A stretch of 64,000 bases of DNA, taken from the sequence record PZ445451.1, one strand, 5' to 3'. Source of the DNA: a phage. Every line of letters starts with the position of its first letter. The first letter of the stretch is position 1. The position numbers were made by a program, and so were the translations under genes. This document shows, piece after piece, positions 3,618 to 19,419 of the stretch. A model generated the notes under the pieces. The model worked only from the letters and a program-made list of their open reading frames with translations. It was not told the DNA's origin and made no database searches.

Positions 3618-6392
3618 TTAGTTTATCAGTTTATTTATGTCTGGTAAAAGATTTATTTCACCTAAGAAATCACCTTCACCTTCCTCTAGCCAACTCTCAT
3701 ATGCTTGTGCATGATTATAGTTACCATCAAAAGAATCTGCAACAAATTTTTCTACAGTTTTTCGAGATGTGCCAGCGCCAAATACACCAAGTTTAATACT
3801 ATTGATCGGTAAAGTGGTGCTTGTTGGTACTTTCTCTGTTGCAACACGGTTGATATCTATAATCTCCTGTACGGTTGTGTTCCATTGTAAGCATTTAACA
3901 CAACGGGTATGCGCTACATACAGTAGGTTTCGCTCTGCCTCTTCCAGTCCTACCCATTCACCAGTTTTTTTATCATAATTGGAAGGAAAATCATTAGCAA
4001 CAATAACCTGATCCCACTCCAAACCTTTAGACTTGTGTGCTGTAGTCAATGTGACTTTTGCTGTAGGAGAATTTCTATGCGTTCTAAGTGTATGTGCTAT
4101 AGTGTTTGCCTTGCCAGAAACTACGATGTTTAACAAGCGTTTAGCATCTGGATCAGCCTCTGCACACTCAACAAATTCATTCCAGTCTGCGTAAGGTAAT
4201 ACAGTTTCATGTTTTACTTTCTCAATATCTCCTCTCCGAAGAGCATTAACACTATCTACCATAGAGATAAAATCCCTGGTATCTACGTTAATAATAATTT
4301 CTTCCCCATCTGCAATACGATCCATTGCCTCCATAAGCAAGGTTAAATTCTTGCGAAAGATGATAGTGTAAGGTTTTGTATAGTCTACAACATCTGATTT
4401 GTAGCTACCTACTACAGTATCAAAGCCTTTACCAACCAAAGGATGACGCAAAGGTTCTTTATCGCTTAAAATCATATTGGCAATGTTTGCCACTTTGGGG
4501 CCAAAACGGAAGCAAGCAGTTAATGGAAGCTCTGCCCCATACTTAGCTGTTTCAATCATCATATTAGAGCTACCTCTAAATTGATAAATGCAGTTGTGGC
4601 TAAGAATTTCATTGCCAAAGAAGTTAGCAGTATCCTCTACTTCAATATCATAATAGATACCCTCACTATCTACAATGTCCACAATCTCTTCTGCCGTTAC
4701 AGTATCACCATCTTTTACCAACACAGACATGCCTTTAAACAAACCCGCTGCCGGAATTAAGTTATATTTGGCACTGTTCACAGAGGACATGCATTCTTTT
4801 AAAGATGCAAACGGAACTATTTCAAGGATCTTTTGTGCAAAACTCAATGCTTCACGATAAGAATTGAAATATTTACGTACACGGTAACGACCTTCCAATT
4901 TAGCAGCACTTACGCTTACACCTGCTTTAATCAGTGAAGAATAGATCGGCATTTCACTTTCTGTCCACTCAAAACTAACTTGTGTTCCTTTACAACCTTG
5001 TGCTCGCAAAGTCACTGTTAGCATTTTTCTTTCATCTACTGCACAATTGATGCTGTGCCAGTGTGGATAAGCAAAATGATAATCTTTATCCTCTAAAAGT
5101 TTAAAACCATTTTGTCCGAATTGTTCAAAGATGTTATTGATCCTTTCTTGATTAATGCCGCGTGAACTTGCTTCAAATACACAAGTAGGAATGCCATATT
5201 GTAAACTGTATGCCATTTCTTTTTCCATAGCAGCTTCACGGTTTTCAACAATATCCAACACCCATAATTTCTGTGCTTTTTCAGAACGTGTACGTTGCCC
5301 CAGTTTAGAAAAACCTTCTTTATCATCGAATTTGTTAGTGATCCCTACTCGGAAACCTAAATCTTTCCTCCACATTAGGTATACCACCATCTGATCATCT
5401 TTCAGAACATAGGATGAAGCCCAAATACGATGGTTATGTGTCATATCTAAAGTTTTACCTGTGGCAGTAATAATATTCCTACCTTTTGTACGTGTAGATA
5501 AAGTCTTATTTGTTACTTTTCTAAATGTAATTTTACCATTAGAATAAGACTCTACCTTATCACCGATTTGTAGGTCTTTCATTGTAACCTGACCATTCTC
5601 GGTATTAAGTACCGTGTTTTCCGACACACATTGGAATTCATCGCCCACTACCACAATTTGTTTTGCAGATTTAGCATTTCGCAGAATAGACAAGAATGCA
5701 GGGTTAACATCCTGGAATTCATCACCAAAAATAATGTCATAACCAAGATCAGCACCTGATAACTCAAACAATTTTACATAGGTGTCATGCGTCATCAAAG
5801 TATCTGTGTTAGGATCAATGCGCTCTCGCCACAATTGTTTTGCATACTTAACTACTTCTGTAATTAGTTTGTGTTCGTTAATACCTTTTCTTTTAATATC
5901 TGCAAGATGTACACCAGGGAAATGTTTACGGCTGATAAAAGGATCATCCGAAAATTCAAACTTACCTACGGTTTGCTTGATCATTAAACCAATCATAGCA
6001 CGAGTTAAAAGTGTTTTCCCTCGTTTATCAATAAGATTATTAATCTTAAATTTCTTTGCTATCTCACTACCTGTACCTGCAACGTTAACATACTGTCCTT
6101 CTGGTCGTGACAGTTTTGCACGTAAACGATGATCCAGGAATTGATAGCAAATGGAATGCAATGTACGGCATTCTACATTTGGTGGCATCTTACGCCGTGC
6201 TTCTTCTGCCATGCTTTTATTGAAAGCTAAGTAAAGAATGCGATCTTCTGTACTGTTAGCCAGCAAATAAAGTGTTGACGTTTTGCCTGATCCAGATTTA
6301 GCTTGGATAGTTAAAAAACGATGGTCTGGAAAAGCCTCCTTAATAGCTGTTTGCTCTTCTGTTGGAGTAAAACTCAACTCTTTCTTAGCCAT
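3618..6392 (-). CDS. SF1 UvrD/PcrA-like DNA helicase, intein-containing precursor
   Basis: Track ORF; start moved to MAKKELSF (ATG 6392). Walker A AKSGSGKTSTL, motif II FGDEFQD, motif III GDEFQ|CIYQFRG split by an in-frame insert, C-terminal TTAHKSKGLEWDQVIV..LLYVAHTRCVK. Confidence 0.85.
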   Translation of the reverse strand: MAKKELSFTPTEEQTAIKEAFPDHRFLTIQAKSGSGKTSTLYLLANSTEDRILYLAFNKSMAEEARRKMPPNVECRTLHSICYQFLDHRLRAKLSRPEGQYVNVAGTGSEIAKKFKINNLIDKRGKTLLTRAMIGLMIKQTVGKFEFSDDPFISRKHFPGVHLADIKRKGINEHKLITEVVKYAKQLWRERIDPNTDTLMTHDTYVKLFELSGADLGYDIIFGDEFQDVNPAFLSILRNAKSAKQIVVVGDEFQCVSENTVLNTENGQVTMKDLQIGDKVESYSNGKITFRKVTNKTLSTRTKGRNIITATGKTLDMTHNHRIWASSYVLKDDQMVVYLMWRKDLGFRVGITNKFDDKEGFSKLGQRTRSEKAQKLWVLDIVENREAAMEKEMAYSLQYGIPTCVFEASSRGINQERINNIFEQFGQNGFKLLEDKDYHFAYPHWHSINCAVDERKMLTVTLRAQGCKGTQVSFEWTESEMPIYSSLIKAGVSVSAAKLEGRYRVRKYFNSYREALSFAQKILEIVPFASLKECMSSVNSAKYNLIPAAGLFKGMSVLVKDGDTVTAEEIVDIVDSEGIYYDIEVEDTANFFGNEILSHNCIYQFRGSSNMMIETAKYGAELPLTACFRFGPKVANIANMILSDKEPLRHPLVGKGFDTVVGSYKSDVVDYTKPYTIIFRKNLTLLMEAMDRIADGEEIIINVDTRDFISMVDSVNALRRGDIEKVKHETVLPYADWNEFVECAEADPDAKRLLNIVVSGKANTIAHTLRTHRNSPTAKVTLTTAHKSKGLEWDQVIVANDFPSNYDKKTGEWVGLEEAERNLLYVAHTRCVKCLQWNTTVQEIIDINRVATEKVPTSTTLPINSIKLGVFGAGTSRKTVEKFVADSFDGNYNHAQAYESWLEEGEGDFLGEINLLPDINKLIN
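4593..5630 (-). mobile_element. Intein (346 aa) inserted in helicase motif III
   Basis: Insert begins CVSENTVLNTENG (block A), has TxxH-like MTHNHRI (block B) and ends ..YYDIEVEDTANFFGNEILSHN followed by extein Cys. Removing it restores GDEFQCIYQFRG. Coordinates derived from track residue numbering (residues 268-613). Confidence 0.75.
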
Positions 6393-12861: not shown

Positions 12862-13152
12862 TCACATTAAGACACGTTTTGTACCGATGGGAGCATTGTC
12901 GAACATGTTTATCACTTTGTCAAGTTTGTGTACTAACTCGTTCGTAATGTTCCACTCTTTGTATGATCTCCATTGTTTCTTATTCTCACCTACCTGGTGT
13001 AAAACTTTGATTGGTGCATTCAAACGTACATTGCGTTCTTTGTCCTCTTCAAAAGAGGCTAACCATTTTTCGTTATGCCCATGAACAGCAATAATAATGC
13101 CAAAACCATCAAAAGTTTCTGTAATATTCTTAGTTGCTAGTGTGATGTTCAT
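12862..13152 (-). CDS. Hypothetical protein (96 aa)
   Basis: Track ORF; first gene of the minus-strand block, divergent from 13272. Confidence 0.5.
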   Translation of the reverse strand: MNITLATKNITETFDGFGIIIAVHGHNEKWLASFEEDKERNVRLNAPIKVLHQVGENKKQWRSYKEWNITNELVHKLDKVINMFDNAPIGTKRVLM

Positions 13153-13271
13153 ATCTAACCTCTTTTGTTACGATACACACAGAGTACCAGAAATTAATTT
13201 CAGATCAAGTATTGACATACTGTTTTATTGTGCTAATCTTAATGCATACACAAACGAGAGGAGATAAACGA

Positions 13272-13823
13272 ATGCAAAACACCGATCTGACTTGGATAGA
13301 AGCTAAAGAAGCCATGTTAAAAGGCAAACGCGTTAAACATAAATACTTTTGCGAAGGAGAATGGTTTGAAATGCGTAACCGATCCCTTGTAGATGAAAAA
13401 GGGAATGACATGGGACAATGGTTCAAAAATGAAATTTGGCAGGGAACAGGTTGGTCTATAGTTGAAGAGCAGCCTAGCCCAAGCGCACTGTTTAGCCCTA
13501 TTATGTATCGCGTTATCGGTGCTTTAGTTGTTGATCACGGGATTGCAGTGGAAAAAGAATGCTGGGAAGAGGTATCTTTTTTCAACCTGGCTTCTTATGC
13601 AAAAAGCCATATGCACTTGTTTGAAGAAGGGGATGAATTTGTTCTTCGTATGCGATATGGCAAAGAATTCAGATTACCACTTGATAATGATGTAGACACT
13701 GTTGTAAAATGGTTAGCAGAGCATTACGCTTACGATGCAATTTGTGGTCGCAGCTTCGGCAACGAACGCTGGGACATGATTTGTGAAAAATATGATTTTG
13801 AGCCGGAGTACGGAGTTTTATAA
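13272..13823 (+). CDS. DUF2829 (Tad2-like) domain protein with extra C-terminal domain
   Basis: Track ORF; start moved to MQNTDLTW (GGAG SD). N-terminal ..WIEAKEAMLKGKRVKH..W(5)..GTGWSIVEE matches the DUF2829 pattern (..EAL.LLK.GKKV.R.GW ... DWEVVE) recalled from Thoeris anti-defence Tad2. Confidence 0.55.
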   Translation: MQNTDLTWIEAKEAMLKGKRVKHKYFCEGEWFEMRNRSLVDEKGNDMGQWFKNEIWQGTGWSIVEEQPSPSALFSPIMYRVIGALVVDHGIAVEKECWEEVSFFNLASYAKSHMHLFEEGDEFVLRMRYGKEFRLPLDNDVDTVVKWLAEHYAYDAICGRSFGNERWDMICEKYDFEPEYGVL

Positions 13824-14732: not shown

Positions 14733-15860
14733 ATGAAATACACGATTTATGGTGATATTGTAAGTGTAAATAAAGATATGGGCGTGGAATCTAACTATCT
14801 TCCACCTGGATTCTATACTGTTAGTCGTGATCCCCTTGGCAATTATTTTTTAAGCCGTGGTAATCTGACAGGTGTACCGGATGTTCTGTATGGTGAAACA
14901 GAAAAACGAGCAAATCACGTTATTCGTACATTCCATCGCCGGAGTGCACAAGGTAAAAATACAGGCTTGCTTCTGACAGGAACTAAGGGCAGTGGTAAAA
15001 CTATGTTAGCCAAACTCATTAGTCGTGACCTTGTAGAAGAAGGTATTCCAACTATTATGGTTACTCAAGCCTACAGTGATGCTAATTTCATTGAACTTAT
15101 TAGCAAGATCACAGACAAAGCAGTCATTATTTTTGACGAGTTTGATAAAGTATATGAGAAGAAACAAGATCAAGAAGCACTTCTCACTTTATTAGATGGT
15201 ACTGGCAGTGGTAATAAACTGTTTATTCTGACTAAAAACAGTGGTTTTATCTCTGAATTCTTTTTAAATCGTCCTAGTCGTGTGTTTTATAATTTTAATT
15301 ATGATAAAATCTCACTAGAAACTATGATTGACTATTTAGATAAAAACCTGGATAACAAAGCACACTTTGATAATTTCCAAAGACTTTGGGATGTAAGTTT
15401 AGAGTTGTCCTTTGATGTGATCCAAGGTATAGTAGAAGAACTTAATTTCTATCCTGATTTATCCTTTAAAGAATGCATCTCTATGATGGGCGTTTCTTTG
15501 GGTGGTGGTAATAAATGGGATATCAGCAGCGTTGTTATTAATGGAAAACTTCAGAAAGTTAGCTGGGTATCTAGTTGGCATAACTTCACACCTGCAATCT
15601 TTTTAGGTGGTTCGTGCACACTAGACGTGTACTTGTCATCTCCAAGTGATGCAGACTCTAAAGAAGCCCTTGCTAATAGCTCTTACGTGGTTTTTGATGA
15701 TGAAGGCGATGCTCGAATTCCATTGAATGCGACAAAAATGAAAGCAGATCTTATTACAGGCGGTAAAATAGTTGTGTTTAGTGATGATCCAGAAGATTCT
15801 TTCCGTATTGTTCTGGAACCAACTATCACCAATGGTGCAACTTTGGCAAGTGTGTTTTAA
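14733..15860 (+). CDS. AAA+ ATPase
   Basis: Track ORF; Walker A LLLTGTKGSGKTMLAK, Walker B VIIFDEFDKV; followed by rho-independent terminator. Confidence 0.7.
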   Translation: MKYTIYGDIVSVNKDMGVESNYLPPGFYTVSRDPLGNYFLSRGNLTGVPDVLYGETEKRANHVIRTFHRRSAQGKNTGLLLTGTKGSGKTMLAKLISRDLVEEGIPTIMVTQAYSDANFIELISKITDKAVIIFDEFDKVYEKKQDQEALLTLLDGTGSGNKLFILTKNSGFISEFFLNRPSRVFYNFNYDKISLETMIDYLDKNLDNKAHFDNFQRLWDVSLELSFDVIQGIVEELNFYPDLSFKECISMMGVSLGGGNKWDISSVVINGKLQKVSWVSSWHNFTPAIFLGGSCTLDVYLSSPSDADSKEALANSSYVVFDDEGDARIPLNATKMKADLITGGKIVVFSDDPEDSFRIVLEPTITNGATLASVF

Positions 15861-15876
15861 GTAAGCCAGCAAATAA

Positions 15877-15900
15877 AAACCCGCTTCGGCGGGTTTTCTT
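15877..15900 (+). terminator. Rho-independent terminator (CCCGC-TTCG-GCGGG-TTTTCTT)
   Basis: Seen directly after AAA+ ATPase gene. Confidence 0.7.
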
Positions 15901-15934
15901 GTATTAATACCAGATTTAATAAGAGGAGTAATAG

Positions 15935-17338
15935 ATGACAGCACCAAAATCATGGGAACAATATAAAGAAGAATTAACACCCCTTGCTAAAAATCACAAT
16001 ATTCAAATCCTGGGTTATGTTGGGGAATGGAAAGGGAGCAAGACTAAACTTAAACTATCTTGCCCTGATCATGGAGAGTGGGAAAGTACCACAATCGCTA
16101 AATTTAAAACTAAAGGCAGTAAATGTTGCCCCGATTGCAATGGTCGTAGAAAAGTAACAGAAGAAAAGGAATGTATTTCCCTTGTTGATATTGCTAAAGA
16201 AAGAGGGTTTACTTTTATAGGTCTTGCCGAGGAGTGGCGAGGTGTGCGAACAAAAATTCGCATAGTTTGCCCTAAACATGGAGAGTGGAACACCACGCAC
16301 ATTATTGATTTTAGGAATGGACGTGGTTGTCCTATCTGTTCTGGTAAGAAGCCGTTAACATGGGAAACAGAATTACCGATCTTGGCAGAGATAGCACAGA
16401 AGAAGGGGTATCAGGTGTTAGGGTACGTTGGAAAATGGAAAGGGTGTTACACAAAACTTGATTTGTTGTGTCATTGTGGGAACAGATGGGATACTACAAG
16501 TATTAACAGTTTTAAAAATGGCAATGGTTGTCCTTTATGTAGGAGGGAGAATATAAGGAAGGCAAAAACAATATCCGACGATCAACATATTGCAGATTTC
16601 TTTTCTACAGGGAAATTTAAGGAAGGCACTATCTTCACCAATACAGGGAAACGTAGTTGTAGTAAATCAGGAGATATTATCTGGATGATCGAGTGTCCTG
16701 TTTGCTCCCATGATGAATATGTTCAAGCAGGTGTTTGCGATGGTAAATTTTACTCTAGAGGAAGTGATCTTAAACAAGGAAGTATCCCTTGCCGCTGTGC
16801 AACTAGCTATCATTATACAGAAAATCAGATTACCTACAAAGTGAGAAAGGAAATAGAAAAGAAAGGGTATGTCTGGGTAGATTGGATTACCAAACCATCT
16901 TCTATAGGTAAGTTTAAATATCTTTGTCTTGTACATGGGGAGCAGATAGGGAGTGCTCGTAACTTATTAACTCAAGGGTGTGGGTGTTCACAGTGTGCTG
17001 GTCATAGTCAACAGCAATTATATATTAATATTGTTAAAGATAATGATATTACAGTTGCTCTTAAGTTTGGCATAGCTAAAGATAGTGACAGGCGATTAAA
17101 CAGTCAAAATAGCCGTAATCTGTTTTTTATGGAGCGTATTTGTTTATATGATTTTAGTACAGTGAAACAGTGTAAGGCTGCTGAAAGAGCTATAAAGAAA
17201 AAATTAAAAACTGGTATCTTAACAGCAAGAGAGTTGAAAGATGGTTATACAGAAACAGTAAGTGTTTCTGATTTGGAAAATCTTCAAAAAATTATTACAC
17301 AATATGGTGGCAAATTAGTATACAGTAAGGAGATGTAA
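15935..17338 (+). CDS. Multi-zinc-ribbon repeat protein with C-terminal GIY-YIG/T5orf172-like putative nuclease domain
   Basis: Track ORF; about 6 tandem repeats of CP.HGEW.TT.I..F..G.GCP.C.G; C-terminus ..LYINIVKDNDITVALKFGIAKDSDRRLNSQN..FMERI..AERAIKKKL..GYTETVSVS resembles the GIY-YIG-like T5orf172 fold (inference). Confidence 0.6.
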   Translation: MTAPKSWEQYKEELTPLAKNHNIQILGYVGEWKGSKTKLKLSCPDHGEWESTTIAKFKTKGSKCCPDCNGRRKVTEEKECISLVDIAKERGFTFIGLAEEWRGVRTKIRIVCPKHGEWNTTHIIDFRNGRGCPICSGKKPLTWETELPILAEIAQKKGYQVLGYVGKWKGCYTKLDLLCHCGNRWDTTSINSFKNGNGCPLCRRENIRKAKTISDDQHIADFFSTGKFKEGTIFTNTGKRSCSKSGDIIWMIECPVCSHDEYVQAGVCDGKFYSRGSDLKQGSIPCRCATSYHYTENQITYKVRKEIEKKGYVWVDWITKPSSIGKFKYLCLVHGEQIGSARNLLTQGCGCSQCAGHSQQQLYINIVKDNDITVALKFGIAKDSDRRLNSQNSRNLFFMERICLYDFSTVKQCKAAERAIKKKLKTGILTARELKDGYTETVSVSDLENLQKIITQYGGKLVYSKEM

Positions 17339-17890
17339 ATGCGGATTACTGATAAGTATGTGTTCTTCTTTTCAGCAAAAGATGAATTTAGCAACTGGTA
17401 TCTATCATCTTTTATTGAACCTTTAGCACCCAAGTATAATAATTCTATTACAAGTTCTGTTGAATTTACTTGTGTGGAACAATATATGATGTGGAGAAAA
17501 GCATGTTTGTTTTATGATTACAGTATTGCATCTTCTATTTTAACCGGAGATCTAAGATATACAGGAGAAAAAGAACAAGCATATTATAAGCGACTAGGCA
17601 GATTAGTTAAAGATTATGATGAAGATACCTGGACTTCTTTACGGGAGAAGATTGTCAAACGTGGTTTGTATCTTAAATACACACAAAATGAAGATCTCAA
17701 AAATAAACTTATAGCCTACGCAGATAAGGAGTTCGTAGAGGCAAGCCCCTATGATTCTATTTATGGTATCAAAATGGGGATGTGGGATCGTGATGTGGAA
17801 AATAAGGACTGTTGGAAAGGACAAAATCTTTTAGGAAAATGGCATACAGACCTTGCTGTTTATCTAAAAACACAATCTGATATTTCCTGA
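17339..17890 (+). CDS. NADAR (YbiA/DUF1768) family protein
   Basis: Track ORF; FFFSAKDEFSNW..EQYMMWRKA..W..REKIVKRGLYLKYTQNEDLKNKL..EFVEASPYDSIYGIK..CWKGQNLLGK matches NADAR signature. Confidence 0.8.
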   Translation: MRITDKYVFFFSAKDEFSNWYLSSFIEPLAPKYNNSITSSVEFTCVEQYMMWRKACLFYDYSIASSILTGDLRYTGEKEQAYYKRLGRLVKDYDEDTWTSLREKIVKRGLYLKYTQNEDLKNKLIAYADKEFVEASPYDSIYGIKMGMWDRDVENKDCWKGQNLLGKWHTDLAVYLKTQSDIS

Positions 17891-18101
17891 TATTTTGAAA
17901 ATTTTTATTTTTATAAAAAGGGGTGTGGGTTTCATGTACGGAAATTCACCCTCTGCACAGTATATCCAGAGTAAGTAGTATTCTACACCCTGTTAATAAA
18001 GTATTTAATTTGTTTGTTGGACTATGGTATCTGATCTTTAAAAGGCATACTATCTCTTAACTACTACTTATAACAAAACAGTAAAATCATTTTTATAAAA
18101 A

Positions 18102-18307
18102 GGACAAAATTATTTAAAGTTTTTACAGATTTTTGGATACAAATTTTGAAAATGAAAAGTTCAAGTTTGGTCAAAATTATTTAAAGTTTTTGTACGTATT
18201 TCTATCCAGATTTTGAAAATGAAAACTTCAATTTTTTAAAAATTCCCCAGTTTATTTAAAGTTTTTTTGCCTTTTTCCGTAGAAAAATCAAAAATGAAAA
18301 GTTCAAT
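18102..18307. repeat. Three tandem ~65-70 bp direct repeats (TATTTAAAGTTTTT ... TTTTGAAAATGAAAAGTTCAA)
   Basis: Seen directly: copies start near 18109, 18176 and 18249, in a convergent intergenic region. Confidence 0.7.
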
Positions 18308-18330
18308 TTCGTGTTTTTATAGGTGTGCGT

Positions 18331-18442
18331 ATGATAATCATTCTCATTTGTAAATGAGAATCATTATCATTTAATTATGTAAGTGATAATCATTCTCAGT
18401 AAGAGAATGAGAATCATTAGCAAATGAGAATTTTTCTCATTT
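18331..18442. promoter_or_regulatory. Array of 5 alternately oriented Fur-box-like palindromic motifs (TGATAATCATTCTCATT / AATGAGAATCATTATC)
   Basis: Seen directly; motif shares GATAATCATT core with the Fur box consensus GATAATGATAATCATTATC. Confidence 0.55.
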
Positions 18443-18703
18443 AGAGAATAACGCGCAGGGGCGGTGTTTGTCTCGCGCTCCCGTGTCCCCTCGCCATACA
18501 ATAAGAATAGCATAACCAACAACAAAAGCAAGCGATTATTTTTATCTTTACATTTCTTTACAAATTTATTTTAGACGAGCTACCGGCGATCAACCTTCCA
18601 ACCAGTGCCCCCTGGTATGTTAGCCCCGCCTTTACGCCGTGGGGGTGGCGTTTCCTCTTCTGTATGTAAAACAGTATAAGCCCGATCCCTGGGCTTGTCA
18701 AGA

Positions 18704-18970
18704 TTATTTTTTGTTTTCTTGCCAGGAAAGGACACCTAACCAAAAATACATATCGCCCCGCGCCCCTGGCGGGATCTTGCTTTCCCCGCCGCCACTGCAA
18801 GCCCATAAATAACCATCAGCGAACGGATCAAAATGTTCTATCTCTTCCACCTTATGATCGCCCAGGTTGAGAACGGTTTCAATCTTTAAGCCCGTTGCGC
18901 TTGCTACCTGGTGCACCGTGCCGCCTTGCCAGCCCAATGAGTGCATGAGATGTAAAGGAGTATTTGTCAT
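18704..18970 (-). CDS. Hypothetical protein (88 aa) in a GC-rich segment
   Basis: Track ORF with AAAGGAG SD; local GC content clearly higher than the rest of the window. Confidence 0.45.
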   Translation of the reverse strand: MTNTPLHLMHSLGWQGGTVHQVASATGLKIETVLNLGDHKVEEIEHFDPFADGYLWACSGGGESKIPPGARGDMYFWLGVLSWQENKK

Positions 18971-19234
18971 GGTATCGCCCTTTCTTTGATGTGCGCCCTG
19001 GTTGGCGCGGTAGAAAGATAATAGCCGTTTCCTTTATAGATAGCAAGCAAAAAAGAAATGAAAAAAGATTAAAAATGGTTGACGTTACCAGGATAATAAC
19101 ATATTATTCATCTTGTCGAGGGGGGCAAGGCACAACGACAATAAATAAAAGGCGGGTGCAATGCAGGACGGGCAAAGGTGAGGATCTCCATAATCCACCG
19201 TCACAATAACATTACTTATAAAAGGTTGATAACG

Positions 19235-19330
19235 ATGATCAAGAAAGAAAACAGCTTGACGGTTGGAACGATTAACGCTATCATTCTAGCCGTTCCATTT
19301 TGGATTGTAGTAGCGGTTGTTATTTTCTAA
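19235..19330 (+). CDS. Small hydrophobic peptide (31 aa, MIKKENSLTVGTINAIILAVPFWIVVAVVIF)
   Basis: Manual ORF; single TM-like segment; weak SD. Confidence 0.3.
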   Translation: MIKKENSLTVGTINAIILAVPFWIVVAVVIF

Positions 19331-19339
19331 AAAATATTC

Positions 19340-19397
19340 TTGACAACGTTTTTTAATCTGATAAGATGTATCACATAGGGCGGCAATAGTGCCGCTC
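19340..19397 (+). promoter_or_regulatory. sigma70-like promoter (TTGACA/TAAGAT) plus conserved 5' leader hairpin (GGGCGGCAATAGTGCCGCTC)
   Basis: Seen directly upstream of gene 19420. Confidence 0.6.
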
Positions 19398-19419
19398 ATA
19401 ACAGAAGAGAGAAATAATC

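Follow-up and report, generated by a model that had tools for sequence, protein, structure and literature searches.

A probable homing-endonuclease-type gene with five CapR modules beside a separate AAA+ ATPase gene in Escherichia phage PaulScherrer

When an ATPase gene is directly followed by a gene for a repeat protein with a nuclease-like tail, do the two belong together, and what is the second one for? This question is raised by two plus-strand genes in phage sequence record PZ445451.1, within a window of 64,000 nucleotides, which is the whole stretch of DNA that was analysed. The stretch is 100% identical to Escherichia phage PaulScherrer (MZ501100.1), where the genes are called bas60_0109 and bas60_0110. 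The initial annotation placed them at 14733-15860 (+, 375 aa) and 15935-17338 (+, 467 aa), and both open reading frames are indeed there.

The first gene, bas60_0109, is a separate, conserved phage gene, and its product is an AAA+ motor. The second is quite probably a free-standing T5orf172-family gene of the homing endonuclease type with five CapR modules, to which the ATPase does not belong. This kind of gene is an ordinary one: it is a selfish phage nuclease gene of an already described sort.

The repeats of bas60_0110 were originally counted as about six zinc ribbons. Tandem zinc modules are real, but there are five of them, all N-terminal to the nuclease. They span residues 9-75 (15959..16159), 76-142 (16160..16360), 143-208 (16361..16558), 209-292 (16559..16810) and 293-359 (16811..17011), all on the plus strand. 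The Pfam family CapR (PF21817) has a gathering cut-off of 24.2 bits, which modules 1 to 4 exceed with 42.2, 39.9, 56.1 and 48.5 bits, while module 5 stays below it at 18.6 bits (E 0.002). An HMM made from the protein's own repeats recovers modules 1, 2 and 5 at 4e-33, 4e-37 and 7e-31. Module 3 contains invariant columns, and module 4, a divergent form, is predicted with a pLDDT > 90. There are also weaker co-matches to DUF723 and DUF4379. At the nucleotide level the modules have diverged, and Tandem Repeats Finder accordingly reports no tandem repeat in the DNA.

Each module has two pairs of candidate zinc ligands some 17-30 residues apart, where CapR has CxxC ... CxC. In module 1 these are C43, H46, C64/C65 and C68 (CPDH...CCPDC), and in module 2 C112, H115, C132 and C135 (CPKH...CPIC). 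Module 3 offers C179, C181 (or H180), C199 and C202 (CHC...CPLC), module 4 C254, C257, C286 and C288 (CPVC...CRC), and module 5 C331, H334, C351 and C354 (CLVH...CGCSQC). The ligand columns of modules 3 to 5 are invariant or nearly so; C179, C199 and C202 do not vary in 71 homologues. The pattern CP.HGEW...GCP.C, earlier given for all repeats, is exact in modules 1 and 2 and loose in 3 and 5, but fails for module 4.

Residues 360-467 (17012..17335, +) form the nuclease domain. The motif first noticed there, KFGIAKDSDRRL...FFMERI, is present. Pfam T5orf172 (PF10544) matches the whole protein at a marginal 20.7 bits against a cut-off of 20, the isolated domain at 23.5 bits, and 14 of 26 family members. 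The predicted fold is of the GIY-YIG superfamily, with Slx1/HIGLE as the closest structures and I-TevI lower down. Together, the Pfam result, the family-level matches and the predicted fold bear out the claim of a GIY-YIG-like tail on a multi-zinc-finger protein. Whole-chain Foldseek of the endonuclease is not significant, and PDB sequences give no meaningful match to either phmmer with the whole endonuclease or a profile of the nuclease domain.

The invariant residues of the domain are Y363, K377, G379, R387, E417, D436, G437, E440 and T441. In 71 homologues the first five never vary, and their positions on beta1, beta2, alpha1 and alpha2 are those of GIY-YIG. Going by predicted secondary structure, R387 in helix 1 and E417 in helix 2 would be the catalytic equivalents, with the Glu corresponding to Odn E180 and I-TevI E75. 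The first Tyr is Y363, but K377/F378 stand in place of the Tyr of YIG. Because of this replacement, and because it has no match to canonical GIY-YIG (PF01541), the protein is assigned to the T5orf172 branch. The domain is under purifying selection: omega is 0.11-0.15 in three of four comparisons, and 0.43 against cardinal.

The ATPase gene that flanks this element (14733..15860, +) carries the motifs GTKGSGKT and IIFDEFD, as reported from the start. It matches Pfam AAA at 1.5e-9 and, over its full length, phrog_2376 at 6.6e-108. An N-terminal beta domain (~1-50) is followed by the AAA+ core and lid (~55-252). The long C-terminal domain of the initial annotation is beta-rich, covers residues ~255-365 and lies outside the AAA+ fold matches. 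Walker A, Walker B, sensor 1, the SRH arginine fingers, a pore-loop aromatic and the AAA+ fold place the protein in the classic clade, along with Bcs1, Trip13/Pch2, NSF-D2, p97 and the AAA module of FtsH. What sets it apart are N- and C-terminal beta domains of its own, which have no counterpart among the AAA+ matches listed. It probably forms an oligomeric ring.

The deposited name of bas60_0109 is 'FtsH-like protease'. The resemblance to FtsH is confined to the AAA module, and no peptidase family is found among the Pfam and NCBIfam matches listed. The name is unfounded since there is neither a protease domain nor an HExxH motif. A missing pore loop was also suspected at first, because the best PDB sequence match aligned without one. 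This was dropped, as column counts gave a conserved aromatic-x-Gly.

The ATPase gene was said to have its own terminator, and it does. An intrinsic-terminator-like hairpin at 15876..15897 (+), AAAACCCGC-TTCG-GCGGGTTTT, closes the gene with a 9-bp stem, a TTCG loop and a T-rich tail. Folding of the intergenic RNA beats 200 out of 200 shuffles (z = -3.0). Compensatory stem changes keep the hairpin in relatives, even in Klebsiella phage phi1_175008, which has no endonuclease. The endonuclease gene starts downstream of the hairpin, with a Shine-Dalgarno sequence AAGAGGAG at 15921..15928 (+), 6 nt 5' of its ATG, that is conserved in orthologous loci. Given this position right after a terminator, bas60_0110 is probably expressed at a low level by read-through.

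Between related phages, it is the endonuclease gene that varies. Orthologues carry 3, 2 or 1 N-terminal modules, and relatives with 2 or 1 show alignment gaps about one or two modules long within 16000-16450. EmilieFrey (Bas61) and JLBYU50 are examples of phages with 2- and 1-module alleles. Counted with the own-repeat HMM, 55 relatives have 0-5 modules, so that the five of bas60_0110 are at the upper end. Identity drops to 60-90% inside the array, against 97-100% in the flanks, and dS is 0.2-0.5 in the endonuclease gene versus 0.03-0.13 in the flanks. The raised dS suggests allele exchange at this locus. With an omega of 0.3-0.46, the gene is not decaying.

Members of the family also occur in unrelated sites: inside a tail gene block (L012), or in front of the T5 tape-measure gene, following a terminator (T5.141). 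Further relatives are found at other loci of genomes that also hold the ATPase. At the site itself, the endonuclease is present in all Justusliebigvirus records and in all listed Phapecoctavirus records, and no empty site is seen in either set. A resident or domesticated gene therefore fits this distribution as well as one that is actively homing.

How might such a gene work as a homing endonuclease? The five CapR-type modules, folding independently like beads on a string, would jointly recognise a long stretch of target DNA. Near the bound site, the DNA would then be cut by the C-terminal T5orf172 nuclease, which has Tyr363, Arg387 and Glu417 at catalytic-type positions. In a mixed infection with related phages, recombinational repair of the cut would carry the gene over to the other genome along with the markers on either side. 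Target specificity may be re-tuned as modules are gained, lost and exchanged.

Cleavage, target and homing are here put forward by analogy, with Odn (gp88) of phage ICP1 as the only precedent for cutting. This chimeric anti-PLE nuclease (Barth et al. 2021, PMC8263062) is the experimental proof that a T5orf172 domain cuts DNA, and changing its equivalent Glu to Ala abolishes cutting. In PLE CapR, the capsid-operon repressor of a Vibrio cholerae satellite, the CapR cysteines are needed for DNA binding (Netter et al. 2021, PMC8096241). Phage homing endonuclease genes have been described that join T5orf172 to repeated CapR, DUF723 or DUF4379 fingers and whose repeats recombine (Barth, Dunham & Seed 2023, PMC10448857). 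With the modules, the tail and the predicted fold, these precedents (PMC8096241, PMC10448857) make a homing endonuclease, one of the functions suggested initially, the best reading.

The closest known likeness is to gp165 and gp174 of ICP1 (PMC10448857), which also have zinc-finger modules at the N-terminus and T5orf172 at the C-terminus. bas60_0110, known here from sequence alone, aligns with the putative homing endonucleases of ICP1 at 31-32% identity (E 1e-25). The in-frame, module-sized indels of its orthologues parallel the repeat-number variation of gp174/gp174*, and like the ICP1 T5orf172 genes it sits beside a conserved gene. Unlike them, it occupies one fixed locus in two genera. The PaulScherrer genome also has just a single copy, while T5orf172 copies are numerous in ICP1 and T5-like phages. 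The supplements of the 2023 study (PMC10448857) contain neither PaulScherrer nor bas60_0110 by name or accession, and they do list the genomes of its relatives Muut, Inny and Mt1B1_P17.

PLE CapR shares PF21817 with bas60_0110, and module 4 repeats its CxxC...CxC arrangement, while modules 1, 2 and 5 have Cys-x2-His in place of the first CxxC. CapR is a single-domain repressor without a nuclease tail, as opposed to five modules plus a nuclease domain. Odn has the same type of T5orf172 domain; both proteins retain Arg and Glu, and in both the first helix lacks His and Tyr. To read DNA, Odn uses a RepA_N domain that it took from its satellite target, and bas60_0110 would use CapR fingers. The canonical GIY-YIG enzymes I-TevI and the T4 seg genes follow a similar beads-on-a-string logic, in which a catalytic domain with the GIY-YIG fold is tethered to modular DNA-binding parts, a zinc finger among them. 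They too are free-standing and lie between conserved genes.

The comparison with Odn opens another reading, in which homing has been lost and a domesticated nuclease cuts the DNA of competitors, be it co-infecting phages, satellites or the host, with a variable array that tracks its targets in an arms race. This is rather unlikely, although the gene is intact at one fixed locus in two genera and its catalytic-type residues are invariant. Module gain and loss and the exchange of alleles diversify the DNA-binding array, while the nuclease tail is conserved. Inny and Muut, of the same genus, carry other T5orf172 genes for which a role as anti-satellite nucleases is proposed (PMC10448857). Against this, blastn, used as a test of satellite origin, finds no nucleotide-level relative of the endonuclease in 5,426 complete E. 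coli genomes. The RepA_N-type genes are different in this respect: their binding domains match satellite genes. In addition, dN/dS stays under 1 in all segments, which gives no signal of positive selection at that resolution. It is likewise doubtful that the gene is a resident weapon of rV5-like phages, held at one locus in two genera while its array is reshuffled (1-3 N-terminal modules, imported diverged alleles) against competing phages or satellites. If that were true, bas60_0110 would be the CapR-finger counterpart of Odn.

It is even less plausible, and indeed quite improbable, that the array represses or tunes phage transcription with an inactive tail, as a domesticated DNA-binding regulator like PLE CapR. 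CapR itself is a repressor derived from the same family (PMC8096241), and an ORF-poor stretch rich in palindromes lies ~1 kb downstream, at 18329-18443. However, CapR lacks a T5orf172 tail, and here all orthologues have one, with Tyr, Arg and Glu invariant and the low omega given above (0.11-0.15 in three of four, 0.43 against cardinal). A change in module number between near-identical genomes would also be unexpected for a regulator. That the repeat protein is an inhibitor which mimics nucleic-acid binding and has no enzymatic role, the other function once suggested, is scarcely conceivable. Nothing beyond the repeat architecture speaks for it, and the modules are CapR-type DNA-binding zinc fingers. 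Invariant catalytic-type residues in the nuclease-fold tail and purifying selection on the nuclease domain make it a disfavoured idea.

Lastly, the ATPase and the nuclease could form a two-gene module of defence or counter-defence, as was initially assumed. ATPase-nuclease pairs are common in defence systems, and the two genes adjoin on the same strand in Justusliebigvirus, Phapecoctavirus and Pseudomonas phage PsgM04F. Their distribution largely refutes this very improbable reading. The endonuclease adjoins only 3 of 80 scanned ATPase loci and not the other 77. It is missing after the ATPase in Klebsiella phage phi1_175008 (74% identical) and in L017 (73%), and jumbo phage CBB likewise has the ATPase without it. 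Even in a phage of the same subfamily, the ATPase occurs on its own. Conversely, the ATPase is within 4 kb in just 3 of 53 endonuclease loci, the nuclease family doing without it in 50. Outside Stephanstirmvirinae the expected conserved co-occurrence is absent; it is confined to the closest lineages. The conserved terminator stands between the two genes, and their evolutionary rates are opposite, with a dN of ~0 in the ATPase and a divergence hot spot in the nuclease array. PADLOC has no match for the nuclease and only weak P-loop noise (E of at least 8.5e-4) for the ATPase. The ATPase is a neighbour of the endonuclease and not its partner; there is no functional pair and no defence island.

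No new defence or counter-defence system is revealed. What does change are three annotations in the widely used BASEL collection of model phages. bas60_0110, previously a hypothetical protein, becomes a T5orf172/CapR homing-endonuclease-type gene, and bas60_0109 an AAA+ ATPase that lacks a protease domain. The third concerns the gene upstream of the ATPase, discussed below. Alleles with 3, 2 and 1 modules in nearly identical E. coli phage backbones also form a clean natural series. This is handy for asking in what way CapR fingers in tandem determine target specificity, and if genes of this sort drive the exchange of markers between phages.

The surroundings do not bear out the proposed four-gene island either, as the plus-strand block comprises seven genes. 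The upstream gene at 13272-13823 had been called Tad2-like. Neither the whole protein nor its N-terminal 73 aa has a Pfam match at E<=10, Tad2/DUF2829 included, and PDB sequence matches at E<=10 contain no Tad2-named chain. Similarity to Tad2 is undetectable at the sequence level. Rfam and tRNA scans of the 64,000-nt window came back empty.

The downstream neighbour, bas60_0111 (17339..17890, +), starts one base after the stop codon of the endonuclease and is a genuine NADAR-family gene, as had been proposed. It scores 125.4 bits against a cut-off of 35.1 for NADAR (PF08719; E 3.5e-36), with NCBIfam TIGR02464 at 1.9e-31 and PADLOC PDC-M42C at 1.7e-34. For NADAR enzymes of phages, a counter-defence role against DarTG1 is documented (PMC11825919, PMC11543638), and bas60_0111 is probably such an ADP-ribosyl-DNA hydrolase. 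Beyond it, ~1 kb downstream of the endonuclease, lies the ORF-poor stretch with its repeated palindromes (18329-18443).

The region matches Escherichia phage PaulScherrer (Bas60, MZ501100.1) with 100% identity; this is an rV5-like myovirus of the BASEL collection (Justusliebigvirus, Stephanstirmvirinae). Both open reading frames lie on the plus strand where the initial annotation placed them, and every motif it quoted is found in them. The ATPase gene, bas60_0109 (14733-15860, 375 aa), was deposited as ‘FtsH-like protease’, and the endonuclease gene, bas60_0110 (15935-17338, 467 aa), as ‘hypothetical protein’. Between them is a terminator-like hairpin, AAAACCCGC-TTCG-GCGGGTTTT (15876-15897); the intergenic RNA folds better than 200 of 200 shuffles (z = -3.0). 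The endonuclease has a strong Shine-Dalgarno sequence upstream, AAGAGGAG (15921-15928). Its stop codon (TAA, 17336-17338) is directly followed by the NADAR start at 17339, and in Phapecoctavirus the endonuclease and the next gene overlap by 7 nt. This means that the endonuclease is tightly embedded in its operon, without flanking spacers.

The endonuclease consists of an array of zinc fingers and a nuclease tail. Pfam reports the CapR homology domain (PF21817, 3.2e-46) in four stretches, with weaker DUF723 and DUF4379 zinc-finger matches and a marginal T5orf172, while in PHROGs the whole protein matches phrog_681, ‘endonuclease’ (3.6e-91). An HMM of the gene’s own repeats, together with per-module Pfam scans, yields five tandem CapR-type modules (residues 9-75, 76-142, 143-208, 209-292 and 293-359). 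The zinc-ribbon repeats are thus present as first noted, but number five and not about six. Four score above the Pfam CapR cut-off of 24.2 bits (40-56 bits), and the fifth falls below it (18.6 bits). Each has two pairs of candidate zinc ligands: CPDH...CCPDC, CPKH...CPIC, CHC...CPLC, CPVC...CRC and CLVH...CGCSQC in modules 1 to 5. Across 71 homologues, modules 3-5 show no or almost no variation in their ligand columns.

Scanned alone, residues 360-467 match T5orf172 with 23.5 bits. Among 26 diverse family members, 14 match T5orf172 and 6 match MUG113, a family of the same Pfam clan. Y363, K377, G379, R387, E417, D436, G437, E440 and T441 are invariant. These matches and residues support the original call of a GIY-YIG-like T5orf172 tail; it is of the T5orf172 branch, not canonical PF01541. 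Another residue stands in place of the YIG tyrosine. The first helix contains neither His nor Tyr, a feature also reported for Odn of ICP1, a T5orf172 protein that cuts DNA in vitro and is dead as a Glu-to-Ala mutant (PMC8263062).

This architecture is not new; the gene is a member of an already described kind. In the Vibrio satellite PLE, CapR serves as a zinc-finger repressor that needs its four cysteines for DNA binding; its origin has been traced to N-terminal domains of T5orf172 proteins of ICP1 that were read as homing endonucleases (PMC8096241). Barth, Dunham and Seed surveyed 229 T5orf172 genes, 87% of them with CapR, DUF723 or DUF4379 fingers, often in tandem; they describe inter-repeat recombination (ICP1 gp174 versus gp174*), domain swapping from gene to gene, and clustering next to essential genes (PMC10448857). 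Our protein can be aligned directly to T5.141 of phage T5 and, with E 1e-25, to ICP1 genes whose annotation is putative homing endonuclease. Its RefSeq relatives are named ‘endonuclease’, and one UniRef entry ‘CapR homology domain-containing protein’. By tblastn, PaulScherrer has one T5orf172-type locus only. The close relatives Inny, Muut and Mt1B1_P17 carry a different T5orf172 gene with RepA_N domains, a proposed anti-satellite nuclease; the same study lists 224 putative E. coli satellites (Barth et al. 2023, PMC10448857).

At this locus, orthologues fall into size classes set apart by whole modules. The largest holds PaulScherrer, cardinal, alia and ALITA, with three N-terminal modules counted in PaulScherrer and cardinal (467 and 465 aa). 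ZYD, PD06, phAPEC8 and TSP7_1 have two (390-397 aa), JLBYU50 and PsgM04F one (330 and 331 aa). EmilieFrey (325 aa) shares this last size class, and ZCKP1 has a 486-aa form. Compared with four close relatives, flanking genes are 97-100% identical in nucleotides; within the endonuclease, chiefly at 16000-17000, identity drops to 60-90%, with in-frame, module-sized gaps. Nei-Gojobori estimates of dS are 0.20-0.53 for the endonuclease versus 0.03-0.13 for the flanks, so the alleles are older than the backbones carrying them. This comparison points to import by recombination, beyond mere relaxed constraint. Omega is 0.30-0.46 for the endonuclease, 0.39-0.58 for modules 1-3, and for the tail 0.11-0.15 in three comparisons and 0.43 against cardinal. 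Since omega is below 1 and reading frames are intact, the gene is maintained. The ATPase behaves in the opposite way, with 16-20 synonymous and 0-1 non-synonymous differences by the same estimates. The most useful product here is a natural allele series for how tandem CapR fingers set specificity.

It had been proposed that ATPase and nuclease form a pair. Such a module is hardly credible, on five grounds: the terminator, the ATPase’s range, two locus counts and the opposite evolution just described. The hairpin shows compensatory stem changes and is kept even in Klebsiella phage phi1_175008, where the ATPase is 74% identical and no endonuclease follows. This assigns the terminator to the ATPase gene, as had been claimed, with the endonuclease beyond it. 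Members of the ATPase family also occur in jumbo phages (in CBB a tRNA gene follows) and in phages infecting Aeromonas, Salmonella, Bacillus, Enterococcus, Staphylococcus and Lactococcus. Conserved co-occurrence was checked at 80 IMG/VR ATPase-relative loci (100% down to 32% identity) and 53 endonuclease-relative loci, with adjacency in only three of each. The former three are all of the closest lineages (>=67% identity); one locus with a 73% identical ATPase (L017) has no CapR+T5orf172 gene next door. The latter three, with the ATPase within 4 kb, are Justusliebigvirus-type only. Elsewhere, endonuclease relatives sit on the opposite strand within a tail/baseplate block (locus L012), among small genes (L011), or, in T5, between the tail chaperone and tape-measure genes, again right after a terminator. 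In several ATPase-carrying genomes they are tens of kilobases off. The adjacency is specific to one lineage, and is the usual placement of such genes next to a conserved gene.

The homing endonuclease reading of the initial annotation holds, given the CapR modules, the T5orf172 tail and the match to ICP1 putative homing endonucleases; its module and island do not. It is likely that this is a T5orf172 homing-endonuclease-type gene that works as follows. The five-finger array would bind an extended site, and the tail would cut DNA nearby. Expression may come from read-through of the ATPase terminator. Recombination in mixed infections would spread or keep the gene, and its specificity would shift as modules are gained, lost or exchanged. 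As the main alternative, the gene could encode a domesticated nuclease, resident in these phages and turned against competitors; this is rather unlikely. All Justusliebigvirus records and all listed Phapecoctavirus records have the gene at the same site, a presence that active homing does not require; against Odn-style capture of a satellite domain, however, blastn found no relative in 5,426 complete E. coli genomes. That the CapR modules, here joined to a nuclease tail, act as a CapR-like regulator is very improbable, and the suggested nucleic-acid-mimicking inhibitor is disfavoured to the point of being negligible.

In the ATPase, Walker A and B, sensor-1 Asn169 and Arg180/Arg183 of the NRPSR motif are invariant. 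An aromatic residue occupies position 114 in 60 of 72 members, followed by x-Gly, a pore-loop-1 pattern. Conservation is lowest in the C-terminal domain (20-27% identity). The protein is probably an AAA+ motor that forms a ring and threads a substrate specific to the phage, and it is probably essential or nearly so, because dN is ~0. The name ‘FtsH-like protease’ is unjustified: HExxH was looked for in the ATPase, and there is none.

In phage cardinal (locus L010, 2234-3362) the annotation splits the ATPase gene into two overlapping CDS; with 99-100% conservation otherwise, this suggests a frameshift or sequencing error. Genomes of the genus also carry a paralogous AAA+ ATPase (match 4001-4756 in each of the relatives’ loci L027 and L028, outside the window), 47% identical over residues 3-256 and ~12-16 kb from the first on the opposite strand; the window holds no second copy. 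Weak phmmer matches of the lid region (residues 201-291) to the influenza NS1 effector domain (E about 8e-4 to 5e-3) are probably spurious.

The supposed four-gene defence island is a plus-strand block of seven genes, bas60_0105 to bas60_0111. Its NADAR gene (17339-17890) is genuine (Pfam 3.5e-36), and phage NADARs have been reported to counter DarTG1 (PMC11825919, PMC11543638). The ‘Tad2-like’ gene (13272-13823) has nothing in Pfam at E<=10 and no match in a PDB sequence search; it hits two separate PHROGs, N-terminal phrog_3474/22208 and C-terminal phrog_11295, with no function assigned. PADLOC returned no match for the nuclease and P-loop noise only for the ATPase. A single plausible counter-defence gene is not enough for an island. 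Because ZYD and PD06, near-identical elsewhere, have different sequence in place of 13000-13750, this stretch is a second variable spot of the block.

After the NADAR gene follows an ORF-poor stretch (17900-19400), in which no Rfam family or tRNA is found and whose equivalent is annotated ‘repeat_region’ in relatives. It contains three AT-rich direct repeats of ~70-79 nt (18089-18309), a palindrome, ATGATAATCATTCTCATTT/AAATGAGAATCATTATCAT, of which degenerate versions make up three 45-nt repeat copies (18329-18443), and terminator-like hairpins (18626-18773). This could be an origin or regulatory region.
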